64,000 nt of DNA from Tubulanus polymorphus. Lineage: Eukaryota > Animalia > Nemertea. The notes under the pieces are model-generated. The model saw nothing but the letters and a program-made list of their open reading frames with translations, did not search any database and was not told where the DNA came from. The DNA is taken from the NCBI RefSeq assembly GCF_964204645.1, contig NW_027437436.1, positions 62,001-126,000 on the forward strand, given 5' to 3'. Below are positions 1 to 26,481 of the stretch, in pieces (the stretch's first letter is position 1; each line of letters starts with the position of its first letter). Both the position numbers and the translations under genes were made by a program.

Positions 1-1
1 T

Positions 2-991
2 GATAAAGAAAAAATAAAATATAGTGAATTAAAATCATGGTTACAAAATCAACCAACATATCAAATTCATAAAAAGATGGATAAAAAATATTTAACAAGA
101 AAAGTAATGGTTTCATATATTGACCAACAATGGCAAGCAGATTTAATTGACATGAAAAACTTAGAAGAATATAACAAAGGATATTTCTGGATACTGAATG
201 TTATAGATATATTCAGTAGATACGCATGGAGTATCCCGATTAAAAATAAAACTGGTATAGAAGTAACAAATGCTTTTAAATCTATATTTAAAGAAGCTAT
301 CCCAGATAAGATACAATTTGATGAAGGTAAAGAATTTTATAACAAACATTTTAAAAAACTATTAACTGATAACGATGTAGAATATTTTTCAACACATTCA
401 GATAAAAAAGCATCTGTTATAGAAAGATTTAATAAAACATTGAAAACTAGAATGTGGAAATATTTCACCGCTAATGAAACATATAAATATATCGATGTGT
501 TAGATGATTTAGTTAAAGGTTATAATAATTCTAAACATAGTTCTATAAATATGAAACCTATACAAGTTAGAAAAGAAGAAAATTCAGAAATAGTTTGGAA
601 TAATTTATATGGAGCATTTGTTACACACGATTTTGGAGAACCTAAATTTAAAATAGGACAACATGTTAGAATTTCTAAATATCGAAAAACATTTTATAAA
701 GGTTATACCCCTAATTTTACAGAAGAAATATTTAAAATTAAAAAGATAATATTAACTAAACCATTTGTTTATAAATTGTTTGATTTAAAAGATGAAGAAA
801 TATTAGGTTATTTTTATGAACAAGAATTATCATTAGTACCAAATCCAGATGAAATAGAATACAAAATAGAAAAGGTATTGAAAACAAAAACTCTTAAAGG
901 AAAAAAGTATTCTTTGGTCAAATATAAAGGATATGATGATAAATTTAATGAATGGATTTTATCTAGTAAAATTAAAAGAATAAATGAATAA
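2..991 (+). CDS. Retroviral-like (rve) DDE integrase with C-terminal chromodomain, 5'-partial
   Basis: Frame is open from base 2. Core motifs WQADLIDM, IDIFSRYAW, QFDEGKEF, KASVIERFNKTLK; chromodomain-like YKIEKVL...YSLVKYKGYDDKFNEWI. Confidence 0.95.
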   Translation, partial: DKEKIKYSELKSWLQNQPTYQIHKKMDKKYLTRKVMVSYIDQQWQADLIDMKNLEEYNKGYFWILNVIDIFSRYAWSIPIKNKTGIEVTNAFKSIFKEAIPDKIQFDEGKEFYNKHFKKLLTDNDVEYFSTHSDKKASVIERFNKTLKTRMWKYFTANETYKYIDVLDDLVKGYNNSKHSSINMKPIQVRKEENSEIVWNNLYGAFVTHDFGEPKFKIGQHVRISKYRKTFYKGYTPNFTEEIFKIKKIILTKPFVYKLFDLKDEEILGYFYEQELSLVPNPDEIEYKIEKVLKTKTLKGKKYSLVKYKGYDDKFNEWILSSKIKRINE

Positions 992-1598
992 AGATTTATT
1001 TATATTTGAACCACATAATATGTTAATAACTGGAGTTACAAACTGCGGTAAAACACACTTCATATTAGACTTGTTAGAAACTATTTATAAAAATCATTTT
1101 GATAATATAATATTATTCTGTCCTACTTATGAAATGAATGAAACGTATAATAGAGATATAGTTTTTAAAGATAAAAAGTTTATTATATTAAATTCTAAAA
1201 CAGTAAAAGAAAATTTAGATAATTGTATAAAAATTGCATTAGATATTTATAAAGGATCTAATACATTATTTATTATTGATGATTGCGCAAATTTACATGA
1301 TTCTAAAATTAGAGAAAGTGAGTTATGTTATTTAGCTTTCTCTGGTAGACATTTTGGGATAACAACTTGGGTTTTAAATCAGAAATATAATTCAATTGTG
1401 AAAGATTTTAGAGAGAATATAAGATTTCTAGTTTTATTCTACAACAAAGATAGAAAATCTATGCAACAATCATTGGAAGAAAATCAAATTATACCTACTG
1501 AATTACATGATGAATATATGAATAAATTAAAAAATAATAAAGGTTCAAAATTACTTATGAGATTACAATTTCCATATGAATATAAATTTATAAAATAA
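984..1598 (+). CDS. A32/FtsK-HerA family DNA packaging ATPase
   Basis: Walker A GVTNCGKT, Walker B LFIIDD, SGRHFGI...NQ motif; starts in TAAATG. Confidence 0.93.
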   Translation: MNKDLFIFEPHNMLITGVTNCGKTHFILDLLETIYKNHFDNIILFCPTYEMNETYNRDIVFKDKKFIILNSKTVKENLDNCIKIALDIYKGSNTLFIIDDCANLHDSKIRESELCYLAFSGRHFGITTWVLNQKYNSIVKDFRENIRFLVLFYNKDRKSMQQSLEENQIIPTELHDEYMNKLKNNKGSKLLMRLQFPYEYKFIK

Positions 1599-1614
1599 CT
1601 ATTTGTATACCTAT

Positions 1615-1740
1615 GTATTAGATACCCTAATACCTGATACCCTAATACCTGATACCCTAATACCTGATACCCTATTAGATACCTTAAATAATTTAATCCC
1701 CCTTTTTTATTTACTATTATTTTATACAATTTTCAACCTT
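1615..1740. repeat. 15-bp tandem repeat (GATACCCTAATACCT) plus CCCCCTTTTTTAT box at the convergence of the two transcription directions
   Basis: About 4 direct copies at 1621-1685, between the stops of the + strand ATPase and the - strand 307-aa ORF; related cassette at 25245-25335. Confidence 0.8.
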
Positions 1741-1757
1741 TATTATTCGAGTTTTAG

Positions 1758-2681
1758 TTAATCAATTTCTGAATCACTTTCACTATAAGACGCTAACAAT
1801 TTATTTAAATGCTCTACCGAATCTTCTTCAATATCTTTATAATTTTTTTTCACCTTTTTCACCTTTTTTACCTTTTTCATATTTTTTACTAAATCATCAA
1901 TAGTTGTTTCATTTTTAAACTTATTCTTCCAATCAAATTTATTATTATTTTCTACTTTAAGTTTTATAGAATCTTTATTATCAATATGTTTAACTGTAAC
2001 TATATCATCATGTGGGTGTATGGCATCATTTTCATTATCATCTTTATTAGTGTTTGCTCCTAATATTTCATTTACAGTGTTTGATCCTAATATTTCATTA
2101 GCATCAGTTAAATCTAATTCATCTTTATTAGGTGTTGCTAATAATAAATCTTCATATATTTTTTCACCATTTACTTTTTTATTTGAAACAAATTTTGTAA
2201 CATATCTAAATGGGTGTTCTATAAATTCTTTTTTACCAACACGTTCTATAACATTAGTAATATGTGAATTTGTATTCATATGTTTATTCCAATTTGATGG
2301 AGCGTTTGAAAATTCACCATTACAATAATCACAATAATTTCTATTTTCACTAACATTTAATATTATTGCATTATTATATGTAGAAGGTATTATATTATTT
2401 GATGTAGAGGGTATTACAGATGTAGAAGGTATTACGATATTAGATGTAGAAGGTATTACGTTATTAGATGTAGAAGGTATTACATTATTATCAATTACAT
2501 TACTTAAATTATCAACAACACCACTTTTATTATTATCGATTTCTATCAGTTTAGTATTATAATTTTTAAAAATAGGATCAAATATCAAAGCTATATTACA
2601 AGGTATTACATAATATAAACCATCATTATTTTCATGTGTATCGATGTATGGAATATGTTTATATACTTTACCTCCTTCCAT
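1758..2681 (-). CDS. Polinton hypothetical protein with VIPSTSNN repeats and a C2H2-like zinc finger
   Basis: 307-aa ORF; CDYC...H...H motif; about 5 VIPSTSN(N) repeats; starts in TAAATG. Confidence 0.7.
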   Translation of the reverse strand: MEGGKVYKHIPYIDTHENNDGLYYVIPCNIALIFDPIFKNYNTKLIEIDNNKSGVVDNLSNVIDNNVIPSTSNNVIPSTSNIVIPSTSVIPSTSNNIIPSTYNNAIILNVSENRNYCDYCNGEFSNAPSNWNKHMNTNSHITNVIERVGKKEFIEHPFRYVTKFVSNKKVNGEKIYEDLLLATPNKDELDLTDANEILGSNTVNEILGANTNKDDNENDAIHPHDDIVTVKHIDNKDSIKLKVENNNKFDWKNKFKNETTIDDLVKNMKKVKKVKKVKKNYKDIEEDSVEHLNKLLASYSESDSEID

Positions 2682-2713
2682 TTATTATATATATTTTTAT
2701 TAAAGTTAAAATT

Positions 2714-3961
2714 TTAATACATAACACTATCTAATTGTGAATTTACAATATTTAATTGCGTGTCAGATATAATATAAATGTGCATTTTAAAATTTTTGAT
2801 TCCCTTTTTCTTTGTCATGAATAATTGTATTCCATCTTTAGTGTTTTGTAATTTTTTCCCAGAACCATGTAATAAGTTATCTTCAGTTGTTCTAAAATCT
2901 AACCATAATGCATATTTATTACCGGTATAATAATCAATTTGATTAATGTTACAATTTTCAAATGATTTTACTTTTTCATTCATAAAATGTTTTTTAATTT
3001 CTACCCATTGATCTATCATTCTCATTCTTTGACAAAATATTTTATTCGCTATTCCTTCGATAGTTATTTCTACTTTTGTTATTTCAGGATTATAATAATT
3101 GTCAACATTTATTGCGCCATTAGTATACGTTCCAATAGTAAAAAATATTAATATACCTTTAATAGATCTTCTAGGGAAGTTAATATTCTCATTTATTATT
3201 TCATCATTTGCATTAATAGTTACAGTTTTAAATTTATCAATATAATCATATAATAATGAAAACCCTTGATTGTATTTAGTTTGAATTATACTTGAAATAT
3301 TTTCATCAGTTACTGTATCATATTCTAAACATATATTCGATAATTTATAACTCATATCTTTAACAACGCTAGATAATACAATTTCATTTACAGGAGCAAA
3401 TGTTATTTCGAATATAATATCTTCTTGAATTGCGTATTTATATAAAGGTGCATTATTATTTATCAATTCAAAATCTAATGGAATTTTATATTTGCTTCCA
3501 TATATACTTTTTATCAATTTATCTACATCATTTGTTAATATTGCGCTATTAGCTTCTGATCTTAATTTATTGTGGTTTTCTGATTGGATGCCTTGAAATA
3601 TCATATTATTTCTATTTTCTTTAGTTAACCATAAATCTTTATAATGCATAAATAAATTATAATCATCTAATGAGAAAACTGTTTCTGGACCAATCTTTAT
3701 TGTTAACTTTTTAATCAAATATCTTCCAACATTATCAACGACATAATTATTATTATTACCGATTACTTTTATATCAGCTGATAAATAATTACTGTTTGGA
3801 ACATAAAAAGTATTTTGTGTTAATCTCGGAATTCTAACGTATAAAGTTTCATCGGGATTAATATTTGAAGGGTTATGAGTAATTATATGATGTGATCTTT
3901 CTGCTTTAATAGCATTAGATATTCTATGATTCTTAGAAGGATTGATATAACTCCCACTCAT
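2714..3961 (-). CDS. Major capsid protein (double jelly-roll, Polinton type)
   Basis: 415 aa, beta-rich; motifs HNPSNINPDETLYVRIP, NVGRYLIKKLTIKIG, YKIPLDF and KYALWLDFRT that I recognise from invertebrate Polinton MCPs; size and context fit. Confidence 0.8.
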   Translation of the reverse strand: MSGSYINPSKNHRISNAIKAERSHHIITHNPSNINPDETLYVRIPRLTQNTFYVPNSNYLSADIKVIGNNNNYVVDNVGRYLIKKLTIKIGPETVFSLDDYNLFMHYKDLWLTKENRNNMIFQGIQSENHNKLRSEANSAILTNDVDKLIKSIYGSKYKIPLDFELINNNAPLYKYAIQEDIIFEITFAPVNEIVLSSVVKDMSYKLSNICLEYDTVTDENISSIIQTKYNQGFSLLYDYIDKFKTVTINANDEIINENINFPRRSIKGILIFFTIGTYTNGAINVDNYYNPEITKVEITIEGIANKIFCQRMRMIDQWVEIKKHFMNEKVKSFENCNINQIDYYTGNKYALWLDFRTTEDNLLHGSGKKLQNTKDGIQLFMTKKKGIKNFKMHIYIISDTQLNIVNSQLDSVMY

Positions 3962-3985
3962 TTATTTAACAAAAAAATTAATTAT

Positions 3986-5686
3986 TTATTTTTTGATATT
4001 TTTTGATATCATATTCACTAACCCAAAAATAATAGCACTTACAACTGTAATTAAAAATAAAATAATATGTTCAGCAGCAAAGTTAATAATGTTTCCTGCA
4101 GATTTCAATATAAAACCAACAATTGATGCAATAACTCCTGGTAAAGCTGCAGCAGATTTCTTTGATAGTTCCCATAAATATTTTGCTAATTTCTTTAAAC
4201 CATCTTTAACTTTATCTTGTATAGAATTATTACTTGGAGGTTTATCTGGTTTGTTAGGAGTAGGAGTAGATTTCAAAGCATTTGATATTGATAAACCAAT
4301 TGTTGTAAATAACATAGTAACAGCTGTTAGAATTGAAAGAATTGTTATTCCTTCTAATTTAAATAATAACTTTATTCTGTCTTTTAATGATATTTCAGAA
4401 TTTGGTTTAATCAACAAATCTTTAAAAATAACTTTTAATCTATTAATATTATAATCATATGATTTTAATAATAATTTAATTTCTTCTTTTTGTAATTCTA
4501 TGTTATATTCTAAATCATCTTTTTCTTTTTCTAAATATGCATTTCTTTTTTTAAATTCGATTTCTTCAATAACTTTATTATCTCTATCTAATTTTAGTTG
4601 TTCTATTTCTTTATTTTTATCAGTTCTATCTTTTTCTAAAAATCTAATTTTAATATCTCGTTTACTTTTTTCATGCGCAATTTTATCAGCTGATTCTTGC
4701 ATACCTTTAATTTCTCTACGTGCTTGTTCAGGAAATGCTTCTAATTCATCATCAGTTAAATCAAATAATCCTTTTTCTAGTAAAGATTGTATTCGATTTA
4801 TTCCAGCACTATTCATCAGTTCTTCTGAATCTCTTAATCTATCAATTTGTTTTTCTAATTGTAATTTACTTGAATCATTATCAATTTGTTGAGTGTCTCT
4901 TCTAGATGTTTCGGGTGTTGAAGATCTTAATCTATCTAATCGATTTCTATTCTCTTCCATTTCTGGATCAAAATCAGTAGGATTTGGATTTGGATTTTTA
5001 AATGGATTTTTAAATGGTGAATATTTGTTTATATCAATTTTAGGAATTGGTTCTTTTTCATTTATTCTATCGAGTGCATTCCATATAATTCTGAGAAATT
5101 CTGTGCCACCTTTTGAATGTTCAATTGTAGATAATGCTCGCATTTCAGGTTCATAAATATTTTCTTGACCCATTTTAGATAATTGAATTGATACAATTTT
5201 GTTATTTAAATCAAGATTATAATACCATGCATCATTTTTAAATTCTAAATTATTCATGAAATATGGGTCATCTTTAAAAATTTGTTCTACAACACCTTTT
5301 GGATTAATTTTATGTATTACAGCTATTGGTAGTAATTCGTTAACAATTGTATCTGTTACTCTAGATTTCATTTTATATAATTCCAAACGTTCATTAGGAT
5401 ATTTTTCTTCTTGTTTTACTAATAGTTCCATGAATTCTTTTCTTTCTGTTCTAGTTGAAATTTTACCACTTTCAAGAGCTTCTAAATATTTATTTAATTT
5501 TTCACGTACTTCGGTATTAATTCCATCATCATCATCATAATCATCTTCACCTAAATTAGTATTATATGTTGATTCATCATCATTATCAATATTAGCGTCT
5601 GCATCATTATAATCATCATCAATATATCCTTCATTATCATTTCCCATGTCATCCAATGGAATATCTTCTCCACCTTCTACATCCAT
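3986..5686 (-). CDS. Polinton coiled-coil protein with C-terminal hydrophobic/amphipathic helices (putative membrane protein)
   Basis: 566 aa; acidic N-terminus, long coiled coil, hydrophobic segments GITILSILTAVTMLFTTIG and IILFLITVVSAIIFGLV. Confidence 0.75.
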   Translation of the reverse strand: MDVEGGEDIPLDDMGNDNEGYIDDDYNDADANIDNDDESTYNTNLGEDDYDDDDGINTEVREKLNKYLEALESGKISTRTERKEFMELLVKQEEKYPNERLELYKMKSRVTDTIVNELLPIAVIHKINPKGVVEQIFKDDPYFMNNLEFKNDAWYYNLDLNNKIVSIQLSKMGQENIYEPEMRALSTIEHSKGGTEFLRIIWNALDRINEKEPIPKIDINKYSPFKNPFKNPNPNPTDFDPEMEENRNRLDRLRSSTPETSRRDTQQIDNDSSKLQLEKQIDRLRDSEELMNSAGINRIQSLLEKGLFDLTDDELEAFPEQARREIKGMQESADKIAHEKSKRDIKIRFLEKDRTDKNKEIEQLKLDRDNKVIEEIEFKKRNAYLEKEKDDLEYNIELQKEEIKLLLKSYDYNINRLKVIFKDLLIKPNSEISLKDRIKLLFKLEGITILSILTAVTMLFTTIGLSISNALKSTPTPNKPDKPPSNNSIQDKVKDGLKKLAKYLWELSKKSAAALPGVIASIVGFILKSAGNIINFAAEHIILFLITVVSAIIFGLVNMISKNIKK

Positions 5687-5702
5687 TTACATAATAAAAA
5701 AA

Positions 5703-7091
5703 TTAAAATTTAAAATATAATATTCCTCCGATTACAATTCCTATACAAGTTATAGCTAATTTAGTATTTTCATGGGATTTATTATCATCATTTAGTTTAA
5801 TTATATCATGTTGAATTTTATCAGTTTTAATATTTTCTGATGTATTGTAATCTTTTATTTTAGAATCATTATTTAATTTAATATTCTTAGTTTTAGTTTC
5901 AGTTGATTGAATATGTTTTTTATTTTTTTCACCTTCTATTAATTTTGGAGCAGTAATAATCTTTTTATTTATATCATTTAATCCAAATGAATTATTTATT
6001 GTTGCAGTTTTAATTAGATTATTATAACCAATTATATTTCCCATCTTCAATACTAAATCATTAGAAATAATTAATAGATTAGGGCCTATAAAATAATTAA
6101 GTCTTACATGAGATTTATCTAAATAATTTTGATATCTTATAATATTTTCTGGAATCGATCTATTTTTATCATTATGAATTGAATCTTCAAATAAAACTTT
6201 AAACTGTTTTTGTGTATCGAATGATGTATTCAAATTTCCAATTATTGGGGATCTTGTTTCAACTTGTGATCCTAGAATACAAATCAAATAAGTTCTAATA
6301 GATTGATTTATTCTTTCTATACCTGATTTAGTAAAACCTTCACTATTTTCTAAAATAAAATAAACCCAACCATTATTGTTTTCTTGTTTTAAATTATCAT
6401 AAAATTTTGGTAATTTATTGAAATTTAATGTTTCTAAATCCTTTGTTTCTATTTTACCATAACCTAATTTTTTATTATAGATATTATAAAAACTATTAGA
6501 TGGTATGGGAAGTGCACAATATTCTGCAATCTTTTTAGGGCATGGAAGTGATCTTATTGTTCCAATTTTTATTCTAAAATCAGAATTATTTATATCTATT
6601 TTAAATTCATTGCAAATTTTATAAAACTTTGATAAATTAATATTATTATCTAATTCTTTGAAATATCTAGATCCTGGTAAAGCGCACTCTAATTCATTTA
6701 ATATTATTCTGATTTGAAAGTATGTATGAAATCTAAATAAACTTTGAATTAGTTTATATTTAGAATTATTCAAATGATCATTCCAACTAATTCCACATCC
6801 TGTTGTTGCACAATAAACAGCAAAATTTAATTGATTCTGCCAATACTTCATATTAGATTTTAATAACCATTGTTTTTCATCTTTCAATTTTTTAAAATTA
6901 ATTTAATATACATGAAATATATTTTCCATCTTTGCATTAAAATTATTAGTTTCAATAACATAAATTTCTAAATTAGTTAATGAATCTAAAACTTCATTTC
7001 TATATGTAATATCATTATTAAAATCTATTGCTGGAATATTATATTTAATTGATTTATTATATCGGAAAGTTTTTGGAAAACTATCTACCAT
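5703..7091 (-). pseudogene. Polinton conserved protein (~462 codons, C-terminal TM) broken by one in-frame TAA at 6903-6905
   Basis: ORFs 6903-7091 and 5703-6887 share a frame and are separated only by the stop and INFKK. Only the upstream part has a TAAATG start. QLNFAVYCATTGCGIS motif; TM at the C-terminus. Confidence 0.75.
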
Positions 7092-7108
7092 TTATATAAC
7101 TAAAAAAA

Positions 7109-7543
7109 TTAATAATTTATTAATTCTTTTAATAATTTATCTTGTTCTTCAACTGTTATATGACCATTTAAACTTATTATATAATCTAGTGTATTCTTTA
7201 ATTTATTAATTTCTTTTATATTAGATTTTATTTTTTCTTTATTACTTTTTATATTTAATTTTGAACTTATACCAGTTAAAACACTTGAACTTAATCCTAA
7301 TACACCAATTGATATAGCTAAAGGTGTTAATGGACTGAATATTGCTAGAAATTTTATTACAGAACTAATTGTAACCGAACCACTTATAATCAAATAATAT
7401 ATAATTTTACTTTTTAAATATTTTTTCTTTTTTATCTTTAAGTCACTTTCAAATTCTAATATTTGTTTTTCTAAATATGTTTTTAATTTAGTTTTATTTA
7501 TATCATGAGGAATAATATCAATACTATCAACTTTATCTTCCAT
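7109..7543 (-). CDS. Small two-TM coiled-coil Polinton protein
   Basis: 144 aa, two central hydrophobic helices; TAAATG start. Confidence 0.7.
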   Translation of the reverse strand: MEDKVDSIDIIPHDINKTKLKTYLEKQILEFESDLKIKKKKYLKSKIIYYLIISGSVTISSVIKFLAIFSPLTPLAISIGVLGLSSSVLTGISSKLNIKSNKEKIKSNIKEINKLKNTLDYIISLNGHITVEEQDKLLKELINY

Positions 7544-7562
7544 TTATTTAGAATAAAAATTA

Positions 7563-7985
7563 CTAATTAGTAAACTTATAAGCAACAAATATAACAATAA
7601 CAGTTCCACCTAAAATCCATATTATTTCATATTTCTGTTGTTCTTTACTTGGGGTATAATAATCTGATAATTTAGGTTTGTATAGATGTAATTTTTCTTT
7701 ATTGGTTACTGCGTTATATAAACTCATTGCACCATCAACTGATTGAAAATCTCTATGTGAAATCTTCTGATCATATAATTCTTTGTTAATATAATCCATA
7801 TAGTTTTGTCTCTTTTCTCTATATTCTTCTGCAGCTTTATTGTATTTCTCTAACGCTAAGTTATGTCTTCTTTGTTCTCCTAATGAACTATTTTTATCAA
7901 TATGTTTAAATAAATAACCACCACCAGTAAATGCTAAAGCGTTAACAATTGCCGATCCTATAATAGTTATAATTGCAGAAGCCAT
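7563..7985 (-). CDS. Small Polinton membrane protein
   Basis: 140 aa; N-terminal hydrophobic helix (GSAIVNALAFTGGGYLF), EQRRHNLALE motif, C-terminal TM; TAAATG start. Confidence 0.72.
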   Translation of the reverse strand: MASAIITIIGSAIVNALAFTGGGYLFKHIDKNSSLGEQRRHNLALEKYNKAAEEYREKRQNYMDYINKELYDQKISHRDFQSVDGAMSLYNAVTNKEKLHLYKPKLSDYYTPSKEQQKYEIIWILGGTVIVIFVAYKFTN

Positions 7986-8008
7986 TTATTTAGCAAAAAA
8001 TTATGCAT

Positions 8009-8230
8009 TTATATGGGAGGAATATATTTTTGTTTTTCCAAATAATCAATAGTTAAATTAGATAAAGTAACTGCTAATGTTAACTTTAAAATATCATTTA
8101 TATCAAATCTATCAACATTAACACTTCCCATTTTGAATACTTTTTTTAATACCATTGAATAACCAACAGTTCCAACTGATAGTAATGCGCCATTATATAA
8201 TCCAGTTATTATCCACTTATTATCACTCAT
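8009..8230 (-). CDS. Small hydrophobic Polinton protein
   Basis: 73 aa, two hydrophobic stretches; T7-N6-TAAATG start. Confidence 0.65.
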   Translation of the reverse strand: MSDNKWIITGLYNGALLSVGTVGYSMVLKKVFKMGSVNVDRFDINDILKLTLAVTLSNLTIDYLEKQKYIPPI

Positions 8231-8587
8231 TTATTTATCAAAAAAATTACTATCTTCAAAATATTTAGTTAACTTAGTGATGATTATTTCAACATTTATT
8301 TCATTACTAGTTTCATTTGTATATATTTCAATTAGTATTTTTTTAATATCATCGATGATAAAATCTTCATCTAATTCATAAAATCTAAAAGATTCTCTAA
8401 TTAAATTAGTAATCTTTTCTACATTTAAAGTTTCTTTATCTATTGTTGTTTCATACTCAAATGTTGTTTCATTAGAAAATGTAATATTTTTGATATGTGT
8501 TATTACATCATTAATGTTAAATTTCATTTCTTTCTCACGTTTAAAATCAAATCCAAAACATATACTCGGTCCAACAGTTATATTCAT
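8231..8587 (-). CDS. Polinton hypothetical acidic protein
   Basis: 118 aa; T7-N6-TAAATG start; abuts the next ORF. Confidence 0.6.
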   Translation of the reverse strand: MNITVGPSICFGFDFKREKEMKFNINDVITHIKNITFSNETTFEYETTIDKETLNVEKITNLIRESFRFYELDEDFIIDDIKKILIEIYTNETSNEINVEIIITKLTKYFEDSNFFDK

Positions 8588-8603
8588 TTATATATCAAAA
8601 AAA

Positions 8604-9362
8604 TTACTCTTTACATCTTATAACTAATTCATATATCACAGGAAAGTTATTTAAATCAATTAAGTATCCATTATGATTTCTTATTTCTAATTTAAAATTA
8701 TTAAATTTAGGAATGCAAGGTTTAAAATCACATTCTGTTAAATTATAATTTATTTGAGTTCCAAATTGTTTAACATTTTTTAGTGGTAAAATATTTAGTA
8801 TACTAGAATTACAAATTGTTTCTTTAGTTGCTTCGAAAGTTTTTGTAGGCTCGATTAAATTGCAATAAATATAAAAGTGTGTAAAAGGTATTATATTTGA
8901 AATGCCTTCTACGTTTACTGTAACAACATCTGGTTCAATTCCTAGCAATTTAGCTATAGGTTTTTTTACCATAAATGCGTGTTGACTTTCATCAAATACT
9001 TTTATTTTAATTCTATTTGAGCTATCACTTTTACTAAATTTAATTAAAAATTTATCATCTTTTCTAATTTTCAACCGTGCTCTACGATTAATTTCTTGAG
9101 CTAATGTTTCTAAATTATATAATCCTGGTCTTAGAAATAGATGAAACCATTTACTTATACTTCTAATATGAATTAAAAAAGTATTATGTTCAATAGTTTT
9201 ATTCGATATATTGTAAAAAGAATTACATAAACTTATATTTACTAATTTTAAATCTACACAATTTTTGAATTCTCTATCTAATTGTACTAATAAATTATGT
9301 GATTTATAATTTGTAAGTTTTCTAGAATCAACAAATATTCTGTATTCTTTTAATTCCGCCAT
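8604..9362 (-). CDS. Minor capsid protein (penton, single jelly-roll)
   Basis: 252 aa; IFVDSR, NSFYNIS, PGLYNLETL, FYIYCNLI and EIRNHNGYLIDLNNFPV pattern typical of Polinton/NCLDV-like pentons. Confidence 0.75.
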   Translation of the reverse strand: MAELKEYRIFVDSRKLTNYKSHNLLVQLDREFKNCVDLKLVNISLCNSFYNISNKTIEHNTFLIHIRSISKWFHLFLRPGLYNLETLAQEINRRARLKIRKDDKFLIKFSKSDSSNRIKIKVFDESQHAFMVKKPIAKLLGIEPDVVTVNVEGISNIIPFTHFYIYCNLIEPTKTFEATKETICNSSILNILPLKNVKQFGTQINYNLTECDFKPCIPKFNNFKLEIRNHNGYLIDLNNFPVIYELVIRCKE

Positions 9363-9379
9363 TTATTTTACATATTTTC

Positions 9380-9721
9380 TCATTCGAAATCTATTTCATG
9401 GTGTCCTTTTTCATTCTTACCTTTGTATACGAAATAGAAATCTCCAGAACATAATTCTTCTAGATCTTCACTTGATAATCTATGAAATCTATCTGGTAAA
9501 TAAGTTCTGAATTTATGTGTATTTCCTTTTAATCCTTCATATTCTAAGTGTATAACTAATTTATCTCCATATTTGTTAGTAACTGTAACAATATTTGTAA
9601 TTAAATATTTCTTGTGAATTGTTAATTCTGTTAACTTTTTGAATTTATAATCTACAGATTTTACATTTGTGGTATCTTTAATTCTATCTAAGAATTCACT
9701 GTGTACTTGTTTACTCTCCAT
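9380..9721 (-). CDS. Small Polinton protein, possibly OB-fold ssDNA-binding
   Basis: 113 aa, KKLTEL...KKYLIT...NKYG...YLPDRF pattern; directly downstream of PolB. The function is inference. Confidence 0.55.
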   Translation of the reverse strand: MESKQVHSEFLDRIKDTTNVKSVDYKFKKLTELTIHKKYLITNIVTVTNKYGDKLVIHLEYEGLKGNTHKFRTYLPDRFHRLSSEDLEELCSGDFYFVYKGKNEKGHHEIDFE

Positions 9722-9749
9722 TTATTATACAAATTTTTATTGAAATTGA

Positions 9750-12700
9750 TTAACACGTTAGAATCCTTTTCATAATCTCATTTTCTTTTGTTTCTTCTCT
9801 TTTGAATTTTATATATTCATCTAAATTGCAACCATACGTGACTGTGTGGATTCCATCATCTAAAATATATCTTTTATCATCAAATGGGTTTAGACTTATC
9901 TTCTCTATCTCTTCAATATACATTTCATGATCTTCAGATCTTAAACATTTCATTTTATGTTTTCTAACTTCTTCATTAAATATACAATTGATGTAATCTT
10001 TGAAATGAATATTCTTTTCTACTACACTTTTGGTTATTCCTTTTAACTTTTTAGCTTCATGTTCTTTAGTTTTATATGAATACATTTTAGATCTAATACC
10101 TATGAACTCTATCATTTCTTCACCGCCTAATTCATCCTTAAACTTCCCAGGAACTTTTTTATTATCATTGCTAAACAATTCATGATCTTTGGGATAGTTA
10201 CTGAAATCAAAATGATGATTTAATATTTTTAAATCATCTTTTATATTATCACTTTTTATCTATAATATGTAAGAATCTGTATCAAAGTATAGAATTTCTA
10301 TATGTTTTTCCCCAAAATGGGGTTGCAATACATTATAATAGAATTCATACATCAATAGCTTTGAAATTTCTAAAACTGCAGCTCCAACATAAATAGGTTT
10401 ATTGAACTTCATAGAAGTTCTTTTTAATTTAACTGCTGCTAAATTTTCATCGAATATTCTATTACCTATAAATTTCGGATACGATTGTAAATGTCTAATT
10501 CTTTTACCATTACTAACTAACTCAATATCATTTCTATTTCTAATATTTTCACATGTTTTTCCATAGAACGCATTATTCATTAGTTTAAAGTAATCTTTTT
10601 CAAAATCAGTTTTAGCTTCAGTTCTCTGTGTAGTATTAAAATCTATATATTTTTCTAACCACTTAGATTGATTAAATGAAATATATCTATGTACTTTTTT
10701 TAATATCATTCCTTGTCTCAAATAAAACTTCAACATTCTATAATGTACAACATAATTATATTTATCTTCTTGAGTTACCATTAACTTTTCAGTATGAATA
10801 TGATTATCGGGTTTAATTCTTTTTTGATAATTTGATAATTCTTCATGTTTAACAATTTTATGTTCGGGACAATATGCTAGATTTCTAGATTTAAATTTAA
10901 TATTTTCGGGGTATTCTAAATCTACAACGAAGAAGTAACCAATATCTGAATCATCTGCAATATCTAGGATTCTTTTCTTCCAATCAAATTTATCAATTTG
11001 TAAAACTTCAGTTAATTCAAACATCCCATAAGGTTGTGGTTCCATCATTGCCCAACCATAAAGATTATTTGCATCTATGTATAATAATTTATATCCAGGA
11101 TTATCATTTACATTGAAATATCTATCACCCAATACACCTGAAACACCTCCTCTTATAGATTTTTCAAATAATAGTAATTGATCTATATTTGTTAACAAAT
11201 CCATTTTTATATCTGTAAATTTTAAACCACAATCCCATGTTAATCCTGGGCTAGAATAACAATGACAAGGATCAATATTGAAATATTTTAGGTTTACATC
11301 TCTAAACCTTTCAAATATATCAGTTAATAATAATACATCTGATTTTAAATATAAATCTACTAATTGTCCATGATTTTCTATTTTGAAATGATTCCAAATA
11401 TTCAATGTTCTATTATAAACTTCATCTTTAACATATTCATTTTTTAATTCATCAGAGAATTGTTCTTTCAATAATTCAGTTATTTTAAAATCATTATGAT
11501 TTTTATAGAAAGAATATGGAATTGCACCTTTATATCTCATTAATTTAAAATCATCATAATTTGGGTAATATTCTTTTAATATCTTTAATTCATCATCAAC
11601 TAATGATTTTGATAAATTATCTAATGAACTATTTAAAAATCTATATGAATCTATAAATCTTAAACAACCAAATTGGAATGATATATAATTCTCAGATGTT
11701 TTAGCTAACATTCTAAATTTATAAGTTGGTATTTTATCTTTTGATCTATTTGAATTTAATATTTCTATTTCATTATTAATTTCTTCTATTTTATGACACA
11801 GTTGCTTAATGAATAAATGCGCGTCATACCCCGATAAATTGTGAAATATAATGGGGACAAAATTTACTTTTTTGGCTTGCAAATTACAATTCTCATGTGC
11901 AGCGCCTCTAAACTTTCCATTCAAATGATCATGGTCTCTTACTTTTTTATCTTTATAATTAAATAGTTTTTCACAATAATAACATTTATCTGCAAACTCA
12001 AATGCTTCTTTATCTTCTTCTGTCATTATAATTTCTATATTTGTATTCAATAATTTACTAAATCTTATTTCATATTCAATTAATAAGTCACAAAAATGAT
12101 TGATAACATTTTCATTTCTATAATGATAATATTCACTTTCAATTAGTTCTGGATAATCAGATTTAATATATAACCCGAAAGCAGCAGCTGATTGATGAAT
12201 CTTTTTAATTGTATTTGTTTTTGGTGGTTCATCTGAATAATCACTTTCATTAGAATTTAATTTCTTTCTTTTATAATATATATCTTTTCTATCTTTATCT
12301 GTTAATTCTTTATTTAATGATTCAAAATCTCCATATATTACAAATGGTACTTTATTTTTGTAATCATATTTTTTGAATTCTAATATTCTATCTTTTTCAT
12401 TTGGTAAAACTAATTTACAATAATCATGATTATCACATAGTTGTTTATGATTTAATAATGTACTTTCATTACTGAATTTATGTAAACATTTTCTACATAG
12501 ATATATTTTATTATGGTGATCACTTTCTGTTCTAAAAAATAAATCGATTTGTTTAATCCACATATAATGATTCTCATAATATAGTATATCTATAACATTA
12601 TTTGAATCATAATCTTTTGATAGATATAAAGGTTCTAATGTATAATGTTTAATATTATTTCCTTTTGTATTTGGTAATTTAATTAAATCAAATACATTTA

Positions 12701-13779
12701 TCTTTAAATTATTATCTCTTTCTATTTTGGGGATGTTTTTAATTCTAACAGGATACTTATCTATCTTATAATTATTTTCAAATTGTTTATAATGAGTTAA
12801 TCTAAAACTATGTGTAATATCTTCTGTTGGGTGTAAACAACTTATTATAGCCCATATAAAACATTTATTATCAAAATTTTGTATATTTATTACACCATTA
12901 GTTTTAAATGGTAGTTTAATATAACTTGTTCCATTTATACTATCATCTTTATAATATGATAAATTATTTTCATCAATTGGTTTTGATTTAGTTAACTTAT
13001 TATATTTTGTGTTATAAACATGTAAAGTTATAAATATTATCTCATCAAATATTAAACCAGATCCTTCAAAATATTTCTCTTCTATTTTAGTTTTTATTTC
13101 ATTATAACATTTATTTAATTTATCATCTATATGTTGTTTAGATATAATATGTTGTGAATGAGAATTTATATTATATATTGGTTTATATTCATTTTATGAA
13201 TTTAACTTTAGAAGATATACTAATTTTAGGATATTCAACATCTGTAATTATTTTTATTATTTCTTTCATATTTTCTAAATGTTTTTTATTTTCTTCTAAT
13301 GTTTTTCCTTTATGAAATTTAAACCTGATAGCTGCTGGACCAATATCACTTTTAAATGCTTCAGTTATCTCTATATCTTTTTTATTATCTAATGAATTAA
13401 TATAATTTCTTACATCTTCCATGTATGGTCTTTTATTGTTTAATTTATTTTTTATTCTTTTAATTGTCTTCTGTTTCTTATCGTTATCATTATCAAAATA
13501 ATCTTCACCTAAAATATCATTATTCTTATTTCTAATATGACTTATAGATTTTAAATGTTCTTTATAATATCTTTTATCACTGAATGATTGATTACATGTA
13601 TCACATTTATATGTTTCCTTTTCATTCTTTAATTCTTCTAATTTAGTTTCTAATATATCATCCTTATATTCTAGTTTCAATTTATTCTCTAAATGTGTTA
13701 TAGTTTTATTGTGTCTTGCTTTTTGAGATTTATCTATATCGATATTACATGTTGGGCAGTAGTACTTATTTGCTTCCAT
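9750..13779 (-). pseudogene. polB: Protein-primed family B DNA polymerase (group-2 Polinton type, ~1340 codons), with a frameshift near 13190 and an in-frame TAG at 10260-10262
   Basis: Joins ORFs 13189-13779 (two C2H2 fingers), an ATG-less open stretch (EGSG...GTSYIKLP...NIQNFDNKCFIWA), 10260-12563 (YGDFES, FHNLSGYDAH, FIDSYRF, YLKSDV, YIDANNLYG, KLMNNAFYGK, YFDTDS) and 9750-10178 (GKFKDE, RSKMYS, KKLKG). Endonuclease VII-like insert CYYC...RDHDHLNGKFRGAAHENCN. Confidence 0.93.
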
Positions 13780-13804
13780 TTTAATACTATATTTTTTATT
13801 AAAA
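13777..13804 (-). promoter_or_regulatory. AATAAAAA-N9-TAAA(A)TG motif upstream of PolB (also at starts 2681, 9721, 23423 and 27054)
   Basis: The same 9-nt spacing at all four distinct genes. Confidence 0.7.
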
Positions 13805-13861
13805 TTGATTTTAGAAGTTCAATGATTTAAATGTTATTCATATATATATGAATATTTTAAG

Positions 13862-14267
13862 AGTAATAGGGGTAATAGGCTTTCATATCAAAGGTTTAAT
13901 GATCGAGTTCATTAATAACATATATTAAAAGTAATTAAAAAACTATAATATATTTTCATAACCGCGTGCATTTCAGTTGAATAATAGAATAATTATTATC
14001 ATTTGAATATATTTGATTATTTGAATTTGTGTATTGTAATTAAATCAATTGGTCGCGGAGCGGAGCGGTAGCGAAGTGGAGCGACCAATTGATTTAATAC
14101 AATATGCTTTTTATATTATTGATATCTTATAATAAATATTTAGTTTTGATATAAAATGCACGCGGTTATGAAAATATATTATAGTTTTTTAATTACTTTT
14201 AATATTTTGTTTTTTAATGGGCTCGACCGTTCGACCTTTGGTATGAAAGCCTATTACCCCTATTACT
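13862..14267. repeat. Polinton right terminus forming a 406-bp imperfect palindrome
   Basis: AGTAATAGGGGTAATAGGCTTTCAT...(13862) pairs with ...ATGAAAGCCTATTACCCCTATTACT (14267) over about 110 bp; inner stem ATTAAATCAATTGGTCGC/GCGACCAATTGATTTAAT around a GC-rich loop. Confidence 0.9.
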
Positions 14268-22146: not shown

Positions 22147-23422
22147 TGGCAAGTTTCAAATACAATGAGACGGATAGCACATAGAGGAATAGACTCTCGT
22201 GTTAACGATAACAATCTTATTTGGATTTAAGGTCATTAGGTTTAAATTCACTCGAATTCAAATCCCCCAAATCCCATTCCAGAAGTTGGCAGTGGATGGT
22301 GTGTACATAATATCCGCGAGTATTTTGTTAACCGTAACTCAAGTGTGTTGTGTAGGGCATTCTTGCCAGGCTTCTGGGAAGAAACATTGCTTAATGTGAT
22401 ATAAGTGAAAAGGCCAATTGGGATTTATTAGGCTGATATTATTATCTTACCATGATAATCTATTCCTCTATGTGCCTGCAAAGTTTCAAGACCAAACAAT
22501 GAATATATTTTCGGTTGTGAAAAACGGCAGTTTACCCTCAAACTGAACAAATCGATTTGGAGCATCTTTGTGGAACTCATACGTTTTATGCAAACCCGCA
22601 TTGCTAGGTAACAATTTCTTTATCTTTTCCTAGACCGAAGCATAATCGTATTTCTTTTTGCAGCTTAACAATTGATTCCATAGAATTTAATAATTCCACT
22701 TACGAATAATAATGTGTTTATTCTAATTTCCATGTGTATTCGGGGCACTTGGCTTCGATCCTCAGGAGAGGGTCGGCGCCAGGCCCCGTTTCAATTGGTC
22801 GGGTCACCTGGTCTTGTCCTCATGTGGGGGCTCAGGCCAGGGCCCCTAAACGTTGGTTATCTTATAGTCGCATATCCACTGACCTAGGCTTGATCCTCAG
22901 GAGGGGGTCGGGGCTAGGAAGTGGAACAAGTAGATACATCCTATTTGGTATGATATTACATGAAATTTACTTTGATAAACATTCGATATTGTAATCAATT
23001 CCAATGAAATATGTTTCCTCACCTGTTAAGGGGGGCCGAAAAACAATCGGCTTGATAAGTTGTCGTGACTCCAGCGAACTTAGACCGCAAACGCAGCTTC
23101 GACATAGGTGCTCAGGTGGCAGCGTAAGGAATAGTCTCGCAAAACTAAGCGGTGTAGGTCAGTATATAGGGTTTAGTTGTTTCATACCAAAGGTCGAACG
23201 GTCGAGCCCATTAAAAAACAAAAAACATAAAAATAATAACAATTTCTACTTGAATTACTCGCAAAACTCATAAAAATGAAAAATAATTCTCGCACACTCG
23301 AATTTATTTTTCATTTTCTACTCGCTAGAAGAAAGTGTGAGTAAAGTGTGAGTGAAATAATTCATAAATCATTGAATATTTATATGCGTTGGATTCATTT
23401 TAATAAAAATTTTGTTATTAAA

Positions 23423-23996
23423 ATGAAGACAGAAGAAGAACCCAACTTTAAAATCGAAATCAATGAAACCAATAAATCATTTTCACAGTTTTACATTAAA
23501 AATTATATTTCAGCAACAAATTTAGTGTCTGCAAGGTATTATAAAATCGATAACATAACTATGATTAATCAAATATCATCAAATGAAACATATTTACTTA
23601 CTGAACTAGTAGATACTTTTGATAATGGCGTTAAAAATCCTAAAATATTCAATACAGTTTTAAATTTTAAAGGAACTTTAGATGAAAACATAATTAATAT
23701 TCTTAAAACTCCTTTCAATGAAAGAAATGATGATATAATACTTTCAAAAGATTACAATGATTTGATTAACTTAAGAATTGAAAAAAGACAATTATATTAT
23801 TTCAATTTTGATAAATAAACAAATTATCTATAATGAAAATTCATCAAATATTGCAGTTCAATGTAATTTAGATGATGAATTTAGAAAATTCAATCCTAAT
23901 GAAAAAGTGCATTGTTATTGCGGAGGTAAATATTTAAAATCACATAAATCAAAGCATTATGAAACAATTAAACATAAAAACTGGCGTAAAGAGTAA
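23423..23996 (+). pseudogene. Left-TIR copy of the ~190-aa CxCG-zinc-finger protein, frameshifted by an extra A at ~23813-23815
   Basis: Reverse complement of 26482-27054 except for the 1-bp insertion and 4 substitutions. Confidence 0.8.
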
Positions 23997-24049
23997 CAAT
24001 TCTACATTATAATTATTGAATTGAGTTAAATGATTTAAATATCTAATAG

Positions 24050-24450
24050 ACTGTTAAAATAATAAATATTTTGACAGTTGAAATGATAAATATTTTGACA
24101 GTTGAAATGATAAGACAGTTGAAATGATAAATTGTTTGACAGTTGAAATGATAAGACAGTTGAAATGATAAATATTTTAACAGTTGAAATGATAAATATT
24201 TTAGCAGTTGAAATGATAAATATTTTAACAGTTGAAATGATAAATTGTTTGACAGTTAAAATGATAAATTGTTTGACAGTTGAAATGATAAATTGTTTGA
24301 CAGTTGAAATGATAAATATTTTGACAGTTGAAATGATAAATATTTTGACAGTTGAAATGATAAATTGTTTGACAGTTAAAATGATAAATTGTTTGACAGT
24401 TGAAATGATAAATTGTTTGGCAGTTGAAATGATAAATTGTTTGGCCGTAA
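24050..24450 (+). repeat. 24-bp tandem array (GACAGTTGAAATGATAAATATTTT / ...AATTGTTT), ~17 units, in the left TIR
   Basis: Direct units, two truncated to 17 bp; mirrored at ~26030-26428. Confidence 0.95.
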
Positions 24451-24567
24451 ATTTAATTGTTATTTGATTTAATCATTTAAAAGTTTAATATTTTTAAAAT
24501 GATTATAAAATATTTAATTAAAAACTAGCAAATATTTTATAAACTGTTTAATTTTTCTCTTAAATAA

Positions 24568-24786
24568 ATGGATGGTTTCATTCCAACTGGGAAAAGTGAT
24601 TTGAAACATTATTTAGTAGCAGGCGGATTAATATTGGCTGCGCTTTTCTTTTATTATGAAAATATTTCAAAAGATTTGATGATTGAAAATAATAAATTGA
24701 GTAAAAAATTAAAGAAGTTAAATGGAAACAATCACAGAAATAAAAAGAATAAAAAAGTTAATGATTTAAATGATTTAGAGGATTAA
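24568..24786 (+). CDS. 72-aa single-TM protein with basic coiled tail (left-TIR copy)
   Basis: TM YLVAGGLILAALFFYY; AATTTTT-N8-TAAATG start like the Polinton membrane genes. Confidence 0.65.
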   Translation: MDGFIPTGKSDLKHYLVAGGLILAALFFYYENISKDLMIENNKLSKKLKKLNGNNHRNKKNKKVNDLNDLED

Positions 24787-24846
24787 AACAGCGTCTTTTA
24801 ATTTCATATATTTTGACTATAAAAATGAGTGAAAATATATTATTTA

Positions 24847-24940
24847 GAATAGAAATTAAAAAGATTTAAATAAAAAAACCATAAGTTACTAGATAAAGTA
24901 ACTTATGGTTTTTTTATTTAAATCTTTTTAATTTCTATTC
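24847..24940. repeat. Perfect hairpin, 44-bp arms, 6-nt loop AGATAA
   Basis: 24847-24890 is the exact reverse complement of 24897-24940; lies at the inner edge of the left TIR. Confidence 0.95.
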
Positions 24941-25350
24941 GCGCTATTGGTTAACAAGAATTGACTAGAATTCAAATAGATTTAACAAGAAATTCAATAA
25001 CTTTAACTGTTAGTATCACTCTTGTATTATTTCATTGTTTCTCTTACTGAATAAGCCAACTAACTAATATCACTCTTGTATTATCCTAGTTAAATGTAAA
25101 GAATTTAAAATATCATACTTGAATGAATTAAAACATAAATTACTTCTGTTACTTCATTTTCAGAAATAAAGCATAATATGTATTCAATACCATTAATATG
25201 TATTTAATACCATCAATATGTATTTGATATGTATTTAATACATGGTATTAGGGTATCTAATAGGGTATCTAATATATTGATGCCTCAACCCCCTTTTTTA
25301 TTAACTTACTAATATATTTTATATTTTCAGCTAATTTAACAGTCGATTTC

Positions 25351-25653
25351 TTATTTTGATTCATATAATTTTTCATCAAGTTCATGAATATACATGTGAT
25401 TTCTCAAACTCTTTTTATTTTTATATCTTTTATTGCATATTTCACAGCATTTTATATTATTCAATCTATCTGAAATATAATTCATATTTTCTATTAATTC
25501 AGTGTATCTAATTTTACAGCAATCATAGAATTCTAACAACTGTTTTATACTATAAATTGAAAAAGAAAATAAACCTGTAAGCATAATAATTGATTTAATA
25601 TTCTGTTGATTTTTATATATTAGATGTAATAAGTTTAATATATTTTCACTCAT
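25351..25653 (-). CDS. ~100-aa protein with a hydrophobic segment and a C2H2 zinc finger
   Basis: CEICNKRYKNKKSLRNHMYIH; ATG in TAAAAATG at 25653; starts in the right TIR and runs into the unique core. Confidence 0.7.
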   Translation of the reverse strand: MSENILNLLHLIYKNQQNIKSIIMLTGLFSFSIYSIKQLLEFYDCCKIRYTELIENMNYISDRLNNIKCCEICNKRYKNKKSLRNHMYIHELDEKLYESK

Positions 25654-25691
25654 TTTTATAGTCAAAATATATGAAATTAAAAGACGCTGTT

Positions 25692-25910
25692 TTAATCCTC
25701 TAAATCATTTAAATCATTAACTTTTTTATTCTTTTTATTTCTGTGATTGTTTCCATTTAACTTCTTTAATTTTTTACTCAATTTATTATTTTCAATCATC
25801 AAATCTTTTGAAATATTTTCATAATAAAAGAAAAGCGCAGCCAATATTAATCCGCCTGCTACTAAATAATGTTTCAAATCACTTTTCCCAGTTGGAATGA
25901 AACCATCCAT
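25692..25910 (-). CDS. 72-aa single-TM protein (right-TIR copy)
   Basis: Same translation as 24568-24786. Confidence 0.65.
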   Translation of the reverse strand: MDGFIPTGKSDLKHYLVAGGLILAALFFYYENISKDLMIENNKLSKKLKKLNGNNHRNKKNKKVNDLNDLED

Positions 25911-26029
25911 TTATTTAAGAGAAAAATTAAACAGTTTATAAAATATTTGCTAGTTTTTAATTAAATATTTTATAATCATTTTAAAAATATTAAACTTTTA
26001 AATGATTAAATCAAATAACAATTAAATTT

Positions 26030-26428: not shown

Positions 26429-26481
26429 CTATTAGATATTTAAATCATTTAACTCAATTCAATAATTATAATGTAGAATTG

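Follow-up and report, generated by a model that had tools for sequence, protein, structure and literature searches.

Virophages carry the late promoters of their helper viruses, as mavirus does with those of CroV (PMC6723459), and in endogenous mavirus-like elements (EMALEs) the promoter motif varies from clade to clade and corresponds to those of different helpers (bioRxiv 10.1101/2025.10.09.676808). Protists are known to harbour polinton-like viruses that resemble virophages (same preprint). In vaccinia virus, a late promoter consists of a T-containing core, a spacer of 5-7 bp and TAAAT(G/A) (PMC5294985), in an intermediate promoter 12 bp separate an AT-rich core from TAAA (PMC12917281), and 5' poly(A) leaders arise by slippage on TAAAT (PMC6211774). 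In asfarviruses the late initiator is TATA and not TAAAT, and the start site of a TBP-dependent promoter follows the box at a distance of 25-30 bp (PMC5294985). We analysed a stretch of 64,000 nucleotides (the window; positions 62,001 to 126,000 of contig NW_027437436.1, assembly GCF_964204645.1) from the ribbon worm Tubulanus polymorphus, which contains the right part of an AT-rich element (element 1). Element 1 is an integrated Polinton/Maverick, in which genes for a family B DNA polymerase (polB), an rve integrase and an A32-like ATPase are all present. The signals at its gene starts suggest that this integrated animal Polinton is probably a virophage-like parasite, whose genes are read in the cytoplasm by the RNA polymerase that a co-infecting poxvirus-like virus supplies.

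Bipartite signals at the gene starts of element 1

A G/C-free A/T block 9-15 nt upstream, followed by TAAAT over the start codon, was found at 12 of the 13 visible gene starts (11 with TAAATG and one with TAAAATG, the 62-aa and 382-aa open reading frames (ORFs) being counted as one gene and the integrase start lying outside the window). The signals fall into two classes (Table 1). In class I, a T-run and a short spacer precede TAAATG. The seven minus-strand starts of this kind described in a first-pass annotation, which was made from the letters alone, were recovered at their places with the spacers listed in Table 1, five of them of 6 nt. The "AA" given there before the T-run is in fact TAA in 7/7 cases, and this TAA is the stop codon of the upstream gene in 3/7. 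The description of seven consecutive genes is correct only when the 62-aa and 382-aa ORFs are taken as one broken gene, as the homologue in a metagenome relative (L003) indicates. The T7 run of the 73-aa gene does lie inside the 118-aa ORF, but this is weak evidence because the L003 ORF stops just before the T-run. The label "capsid/membrane genes" is putative: hydrophobic segments occur in the 566-, 144- and 140-aa proteins, and the Capsid_N match of the major capsid protein (MCP) is below threshold (E 0.012). As the annotation stated, TAAATG further opens the genes for the ATPase, the penton-like protein and the 113-aa and 307-aa proteins. In class II, which the annotation did not describe, AATAAA-N11-TAAA(A)TG precedes the 307-aa, 113-aa and polB genes and the first ORF of a second element in the window (element 2). 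Since polB is the first gene after the terminal repeat, its signal has no upstream gene to end.

The pattern T5-N5-8-TAAATG occurs seven times on the minus strand of element 1, each time at a gene start. Over 300 dinucleotide shuffles it averaged 0.34 occurrences and never exceeded 2, and it was absent from 45.6 kb of host flank. The minus strand carries 33 TAAATG hexamers, and the T-run accompanies just the seven at gene starts. TAA stood ahead of 18 of 221 out-of-frame ATGs inside window ORFs. The signal is thus enriched over an AT-matched background, both against the shuffles and in the GC-matched clades described below, whereas a lack of enrichment was what the first-pass annotation had named as a refutation.

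Conservation of the start signal among relatives

Relatives were collected by a search with a capsid alignment, and the best 80 of 129 metagenome loci (labels L0xx; 28-76% capsid identity) were analysed with automatic ORF calls (first ATG, at least 70 aa). Near-duplicate loci (L002, L045, L017, L049, L056, L063) were dropped. L018, L038, L054 and L058 carry short capsid fragments and are not in the tree; their placement in clade A or B was visual and therefore in part circular. TAAATG was present at 57/69 ORF starts in clade A (15 loci, window excluded), 51/59 in clade B and 5/6 in clade C, as compared with 2/212 in the other 42 loci. At homology-anchored starts, which leave out L033, L036, L041, L050, L068, L078 and L080, the counts were 32/40, 43/45 and 3/4 (together 78/89) for the three clades and 1/84 for the sister clades. 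Clade B (mean 35% GC) and clade N2 (35% GC) are equal in composition, whereas their counts are opposite (43/45 and 0/24), which indicates that composition does not explain TAAATG. AT-richness as the cause was rejected on the basis of the shuffles and the GC-matched clades. The core gene families are the same ones in TAAATG and non-TAAATG clades, so that the signal changes for all genes together. The start signal is all-or-none and lineage-wide, and is a real, strongly conserved feature.

Conservation in relatives had been proposed as a test, and TAAATG is kept down to about 30% capsid identity. Conservation of the spacing was seen in the near clade A but not in the distant clade B, where a run of at least five T's precedes 3/52 starts; clade B retains TAAATG and a T-rich block at -9 to -12. 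On a capsid tree (LG+G4, quick search; 33/59 rows kept, unrooted), the signal state needs three changes, two of which are forced by well-supported branches, and a single clade of TAAATG lineages was rejected (approximately unbiased test, p 0.009); the TAAATG group was named after the first tree had been seen, and elements may exchange their capsid genes. At least two switches of the code of a whole element (two to three changes on the capsid tree) would be expected from helper switching.

Several features of individual relatives were noted. In five clade B loci (L029, L032, L040, L043, L046), the ATPase and 382-aa-family genes are divergent and their 5' ends overlap by 22 or 28 nt, each TAAATG lying within the coding sequence of the opposite gene. 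L003 encodes a deoxynucleoside kinase (10343-10981, minus strand; PF01712, E 1.7e-31) with a putative class I promoter, and its head-to-head neighbour has a class II signal; only four relatives of this kinase were found at E <= 1e-20. In sister-clade loci without TAAATG (L016, L019-L024, L028, L052, L057, L047-L077), TATA lies within 14 nt of the ATG at 4/6 starts in clade N1 (shuffle 0.4), 14/24 in N2 (6.4, maximum 13) and 14/48 in N5 (5.8, maximum 12). This TATA is similar to the late initiator of asfarviruses or to a host promoter with a short leader. In clade N5, the capsid gene and its divergent neighbour are also preceded, at about 20-28 nt, by a palindromic box of the TTTTCAATTGAAAA type.

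Likeness to poxvirus promoters and rival explanations

The same script was applied to seven of eight chordopoxvirus loci (Pfam G9, L1, L3, L4, L5, J1; near-duplicate L094 dropped), in which 70/159 ORFs start with TAAATG. Upstream of these starts, the frequency of T was 0.73/0.71 at -11/-10 and G+C was at most 0.06 at -12 to -10. Clade A gave T at 0.67/0.72/0.91 for -11 to -9 with G+C of at most 0.03 at -12 to -10, and clade B T at 0.79/0.71/0.71 for -11 to -9. The upstream profile of clade A correlated with that of the poxviruses (r 0.47, p 0.018). After removal of starts with a nearby initiator on the opposite strand, a block free of G/C and rich in T, at -12 to -9, was counted at 39/55 starts in clade A, 19/38 in clade B and 20/43 in poxviruses (shuffle means 16.4, 5.5 and 6.9; maxima 27, 14 and 14). 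The initiator and the position of the block are common to the sequences of the element and of poxviruses, which does not prove the helper family. Of the poxvirus-late-type architecture claimed in the first-pass annotation, the initiator and the upstream geometry are like those of chordopoxvirus loci, while the exact 6-nt spacing is a property of the near clade. The accompanying link to asfarviruses (terminating runs of at least seven T's, asfar-like machinery) was not supported. TATA, the late initiator of asfarviruses (PMC5294985), is not enriched within 14 nt of the ATG in clade A (15 vs 15.2 expected) or clade B (6 vs 11.6), and the distance of the T-run is fixed to the next start and not to the previous stop; an asfarvirus assignment of the clade of element 1 was rejected on these grounds.

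On the preferred reading, integrated copies would stay silent until a helper infects the cell, and the intermediate and late transcription factors of the helper would then recognise the promoters of class II and class I. The T-run class would represent late promoters of capsid and membrane-associated genes, and the AATAAA-N11-13 class intermediate-like promoters of polB, the SSB-like gene and others. With a start of transcription inside TAAAT, slippage of the polymerase on the three T's of the template would give a 5' poly(A) leader in place of the upstream DNA. The polymerase that the element encodes would replicate the excised copy at the virus factory or close to it; after packaging, the capsid would spread the element, as in mavirus with CroV (PMC6723459), and it would re-enter the germline through its integrase. 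We infer that the element depends on a helper virus. That the element harms the helper, or that germline copies act in antiviral defence, is no more than a conceivable possibility. That the copies reside in an invertebrate germline, as the first-pass annotation had supposed, is supported by a flank transposase 100% identical to an annotated Tubulanus polymorphus protein and by a single element end joined to many flanks.

Several observations weigh against transcription by a poxvirus-like helper. The profile of clade B did not correlate significantly with that of poxviruses (r 0.33, p 0.10), and the 70 poxvirus starts are orthologues from seven loci and are not independent. A run of at least five T's at exactly 6 nt was confined to clade A (16/69 vs 1/70 in poxviruses and 0/52 in clade B). 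The class II motif AATAAA-N11-13-TAAA, found at 9/71 clade A starts (shuffle 1.0, maximum 5), was picked after sight of the window, which gives three of the nine hits, and its exact form was found at 0/81 poxvirus and 0/53 clade B starts. AATAAA overlaps the initiator in 23/57 clade A starts. The motif is short, rich in A and T and not confined to poxviruses. In three AT-rich giant-virus records, which had been selected by our own class I pattern, this pattern was about twice as frequent as a reversed control (35/21, 51/26, 58/33). Sister clades without TAAATG also show short divergent gaps of 15-69 nt, so that compact promoters alone imply no poxvirus helper. The left end of element 1 lies outside the window and might encode a factor of its own, and the window copy is decayed, with polB and one core gene broken. 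Neither a transcript start nor a helper virus was seen, and the promoter role is read from sequence.

The signals might instead act at 3' ends or in translation, as a U-rich element with AAUAAA for polyadenylation, as poly-T terminators or as TAA-ATG coupling on a polycistronic RNA. The T-run directly follows an upstream stop in three of the seven window cases, AATAAATG is found in 23/57 clade A starts, and class II contains AATAAA. However, the TAA of TAAATG is a stop of the upstream frame at only 3/57 starts in clade A and 6/51 in clade B, for which reason stop-start coupling was rejected, and polyadenylation or termination as the main role was rejected because the signals precede genes with nothing upstream and AATAAATG is found in only 9/51 clade B starts. 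The signal stands ahead of genes without an upstream co-directional gene, namely polB and head-to-head pairs. Both starts of a head-to-head pair are TAAATG in 5/6 pairs of clade A and 12/12 of clade B (in seven the start codons are 14-37 nt apart, and five overlap), as compared with 8/36 in poxviruses and 0/23 in other clades, and such paired signals argue against the polyadenylation, terminator and stop-start readings, which are largely refuted and retain hardly any probability. A trans-splice acceptor was rejected because no AG acceptor is read in the sequence ahead of the ATG. A purine at -3 was found at 9/85 starts of clades A and B together vs 77/84 in other clades; T at -3 is anti-Kozak, and a Kozak context was rejected. 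A T at this position would be sensible if it were absent from the mRNA, as with a poxvirus polymerase that starts in TAAAT and slips, and the resulting poly(A) leader would explain why it is T and not the Kozak purine.

The position of the block also bears on transcription by nuclear host RNA polymerase II with an element-encoded factor (for example a TBP-like one) or an unusual core promoter, in which case the likeness to poxviruses would be convergent. The element presumably must visit the nucleus to integrate, the window does not reach its left end, no fold is assigned to several core proteins, and TATAAATG occurs in 22/57 clade A starts. Since 25-30 bp separate a TBP box from the start site (PMC5294985), however, a box 9-15 nt before TAAAT would place the start inside the coding sequence, and divergent start codons 14-15 nt apart leave no space for templated leaders. 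In addition, T at -3 is selected against Kozak, and no TBP match was found in 51 proteins. We regard nuclear transcription as improbable. The same mechanism with a non-pox cytoplasmic partner that uses a TAAA(T) initiator, such as an AT-rich giant virus, an egovirus-like pox relative or a pGKL-like linear plasmid, is unlikely. The initiator of pGKL promoters is TAAAN, and poly(A) leaders are found at the 5' end (PMC6211774), and egoviruses include branches from marine sediment (bioRxiv 10.1101/2024.03.23.586382). Besides the excess of the class I pattern over the reversed control, 7/34 ORFs start with TAAATG in six AT-rich giant-virus loci. We know of no poxvirus of ribbon worms, and the term 'nemertea' occurred in no paper among the matches listed in our literature search. 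The poxvirus profile fits clade A, whereas the giant-virus loci showed no significant correlation with it (r 0.33, n 7), and C is found at +4 in 4/7 of their starts where Polinton and poxvirus starts have G or A. Because a non-pox cytoplasmic helper would imply the same lifestyle, the two readings add up, and transcription of the helper type, by a poxvirus-like or another cytoplasmic virus, is quite likely. It is highly improbable that the signal is a relic of a lineage that once used a pox-like helper, the copies in the Tubulanus genome being decaying passengers with inactive promoters. The breaks in polB and in one core gene, and reads of raw DNA run X7 that are mostly only 90-95% alike to the window copy, would fit such a relic. 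The motif is kept, however, over relatives of 30-76% capsid identity with differing gene orders, which indicates long selection, and pieces of 90-98% identity in runs X5 and X6 (low depth) and the near-identical terminal repeats of element 2 speak against it.

A search for the element's own machinery covered 18 window proteins and 33 further proteins (31 from positive-clade relatives, narrowed from 33/49 unlabelled ORFs, and two from element 2; near-duplicates, fragments and likely spurious ORFs excluded). No Pfam match to an RNA polymerase, a capping enzyme, TBP or the adenain protease was found in these proteins, among which there is no complete element, and no poxvirus RNA polymerase subunit was seen among the 33 proteins or the short TAAATG ORFs checked by eye. 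The predicted fold of the 442-aa L003 homologue of the broken gene (pLDDT 62) gave no BFVD match at E <= 0.001 (best VIA Z 4.8), which does not exclude a transcription factor, and that of a 160-aa protein of L029 (pLDDT 78.5) likewise gave no BFVD match at E <= 0.001. Scans of viral_contigs with the MCP, the MCP alignment and the ATPase alignment returned no relatives, nor did genome_contigs. A double-motif scan of viral_contigs returned 12 loci, one of a chordopoxvirus and the others AT-rich phage or giant-virus contigs, mostly by chance, and no marine pox-like helper. Adenain was also not seen in the window part of element 1 or in three relatives of 11-12 kb (L003, L029, L045); if the absence is real, maturation might also rely on the helper.

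A wider generalisation is doubtful, although conceivable. A broad group of animal Polintons could be endogenous virophages of cytoplasmic large DNA viruses, the promoter code naming the class of helper. TAAATG lineages would then parasitise undiscovered pox-like viruses of marine or other invertebrates, TATA sister lineages would use asfarvirus-like helpers, and germline copies could act as an inherited, inducible antiviral system. If a poxvirus-type polymerase does read the promoters described here, a widespread class of residents of animal genomes would be virophage-like parasites, and a lifestyle known from protists would extend to animal germlines. Poxvirus-like viruses would be predicted in marine invertebrates, and the helper class of any Polinton could be guessed from its sequence.

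The two elements and their relation to described systems

The features of the window are collected in Table 1. The GC content is 20-25% in element 1 and about 36% in the flank. The MCP has 423 relatives, and the candidate double jelly-roll MCP and penton gave Pfam matches below threshold only (Capsid_N E 0.012; DUF5901 E 0.019). The polB of the window copy consists of three open stretches with breaks near 13190 and 10260. The single end of element 1 that lies inside the window begins with AGT, and its terminal 400 bp could fold as a long hairpin or a racket-shaped end.

Table 1. Positions of elements, genes and candidate start signals in the window (class I, late-like; class II, intermediate-like)
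Feature	Position	Strand	Remarks
Element 1, Polinton/Maverick, AT-rich	1..14267	.	left part beyond window; right terminus 14267
rve integrase + chromodomain	2..991	+	start outside window; PF00665 E 2e-9, PF00385 E 7e-5
A32-like packaging ATPase	981..1598	+	PF04665 E 8.2e-13; TAAATG start 981-986 overlaps integrase end
307-aa gene	1758-2681	-	class II signal
Class II AATAAA-N11-TAAATG, 307-aa gene	2679..2701	-	same class ahead of L001, L005 homologues
MCP, 415 aa	2714..3961	-	label from context and relatives; Capsid_N sub-threshold
Class I TAA-T7-GTTAAA-TAAATG, MCP	3959..3980	-	
566-aa gene, two hydrophobic segments	3986-5686	-	
Class I TAA-T7-ATTATG-TAAATG, 566-aa gene	5684..5705	-	
Broken gene, 382-aa ORF + 62-aa ORF	5703-6851 + 6903-7091	-	single 442-aa ORF in L003 homologue
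Class I TAA-T7-AGTTATA-TAAATG, broken 62-aa/382-aa gene	7089..7111	-	
144-aa gene, hydrophobic segment(s)	7109-7543	-	
Class I TAA-T5-ATTCTAAA-TAAATG, 144-aa gene	7541..7562	-	
140-aa gene, hydrophobic segment(s)	7563-7985	-	
Class I TAA-T6-GCTAAA-TAAATG, 140-aa gene	7983..8003	-	
73-aa gene	8009-8230	-	
Class I TAA-T7-GATAAA-TAAATG, 73-aa gene	8228..8249	-	inside end of 118-aa ORF
118-aa gene	8231-8587	-	
Class I TAA-T7-GATATA-TAAATG, 118-aa gene	8585..8606	-	
252-aa penton-like gene, putative label	8604..9365	-	TAAATG start, A-rich block upstream; class II signal in L003 homologue
113-aa gene	9380-9721	-	weak lead to phi29-type SSB (atlas score 0.85, lead only)
Class II AATAAA-N11-TAAATG, 113-aa gene	9719..9741	-	
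polB, protein-primed family B	9750..13779	-	PF03175 E 3.9e-15
Class II AATAAA-N11-TAAAATG, polB	13777..13800	-	first gene past terminal repeat
Right terminal region, ~400 bp imperfect palindrome	13862..14267	.	78% self-complementary
Element 2, related non-autonomous, AT-rich	23161..27316	.	1.68-kb inverted repeats; 6-bp target duplication TAGGTC

In run X7, 1425 reads leave the element at 14267 into unlike flanks (agreement 0.33), which indicates a genome with tens of integrated copies. The depth over most of element 1 was roughly 30-100 times that of a single-copy flank bin (about 9.5), a ratio that is rough because X7 is another sample than X1. Most X7 reads fell in the 90-95% range (58,280/88,360 on an 18-kb stretch, host repeats included). 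Of X5 and X6, in which the pieces of 90-98% identity were found, one is labelled as a second organism and one is a marine metagenome. Runs X8, X9 and X10 (same species label) contained almost no element (one 166-nt piece of about 83% in X8); their run type is not on record, and they are silent on expression.

Elements 1 and 2 have 58 bp of terminal sequence in common (93%). The ORFs borne on the repeats of element 2 start with AATAAA-N11-TAAAATG (23402-23425) and TAA-T5-N8-TAAATG (24549-24570). Each repeat contains a 24-bp tandem array. In the central part there is a perfect palindrome, near 24870-24920, as well as an ORF for a C2H2 zinc finger (25351-25704). Short TATTAGGGTATC-type repeats beside an A6-G5 run were noted at 1620-1700 in element 1, between converging genes, and at 25240-25300 in element 2, in the central part. 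The host flank (44683-47004; 28976-29740; 49528-49977) carries a DDE transposase of the pogo type (PF03184) and exons that probably belong to a membrane receptor; one of these is Ig-like, and there are tyrosine-containing repeats of 14 aa (42-bp array, 29004-29465).

The pGKL1/2 plasmids of yeast have their own RNA polymerase and capping enzyme and lack a capsid and an integrase. Among the scanned proteins of the present elements, neither an RNA polymerase nor a capping enzyme was found. Common to both systems are a linear protein-primed element and a TAAAN initiator (PMC6211774). With the intermediate and late promoters of vaccinia virus (PMC5294985; PMC12917281), element 1 has in common the bipartite layout, TAAAT(G) over the start codon and a G/C-free T-rich block at -10/-11, and compact bidirectional head-to-head promoters are also found in poxviruses (our poxvirus loci; PMC3185747). 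Clade A differs from vaccinia in longer and more uniform T-runs and in A-W-A just before TAAAT, and the likeness is known here from sequence alone.

Animal Mavericks/Polintons (Polintoviricetes; the 'adintoviruses' of Starrett et al., PMC8502044) have in common with element 1 the PF03175 polB, the rve integrase, the A32-like ATPase, capsid-like genes, putative terminal repeats and many copies. Element 1 is distinguished from them by gene starts with a poxvirus-type grammar and T at -3; no adenain was seen in its window part or in the long relatives scanned, the ends being missing. Promoters are not mentioned in the accessible text of Starrett et al. (PMC8502044), nor in that of a 2026 classification (bioRxiv 10.64898/2026.06.19.733378) or of the egovirus preprint (bioRxiv 10.1101/2024.03.23.586382). 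We found no report of poxvirus-type TAAAT promoters in integrase-bearing animal Polintons in the literature outside subscription papers and bioRxiv supplements.

The polinton-like viruses associated with entomopoxviruses (Barth et al. 2024, PMC11296320) are likewise small elements proposed as hyperparasites of invertebrate poxviruses. They come from occlusion bodies of moth viruses, some have a primase-helicase and a tyrosine recombinase, and they have an adenovirus-type protease, whereas element 1 is a marine element integrated in a germline, and its promoter code is what points to a poxvirus. The words 'promoter', 'TAAAT', 'transcription' and 'endogenous' do not occur in the accessible main text of that paper (PMC11296320). 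A helper-type post-replicative promoter ahead of most genes, as expected of a lifestyle like that of mavirus and EMALEs, is present in element 1 at the level of sequence, where it matches chordopoxvirus loci. Mavirus, the EMALEs of Cafeteria and Sputnik likewise carry post-replicative promoters of large viruses, and mavirus and EMALEs are integrating elements with polB and rve (PMC6723459). These have protist hosts, helpers of the Imitervirales and another capsid lineage, whereas element 1 combines an animal host and a Polinton-type capsid with a pox-type TAAAT signal and a presumed helper.

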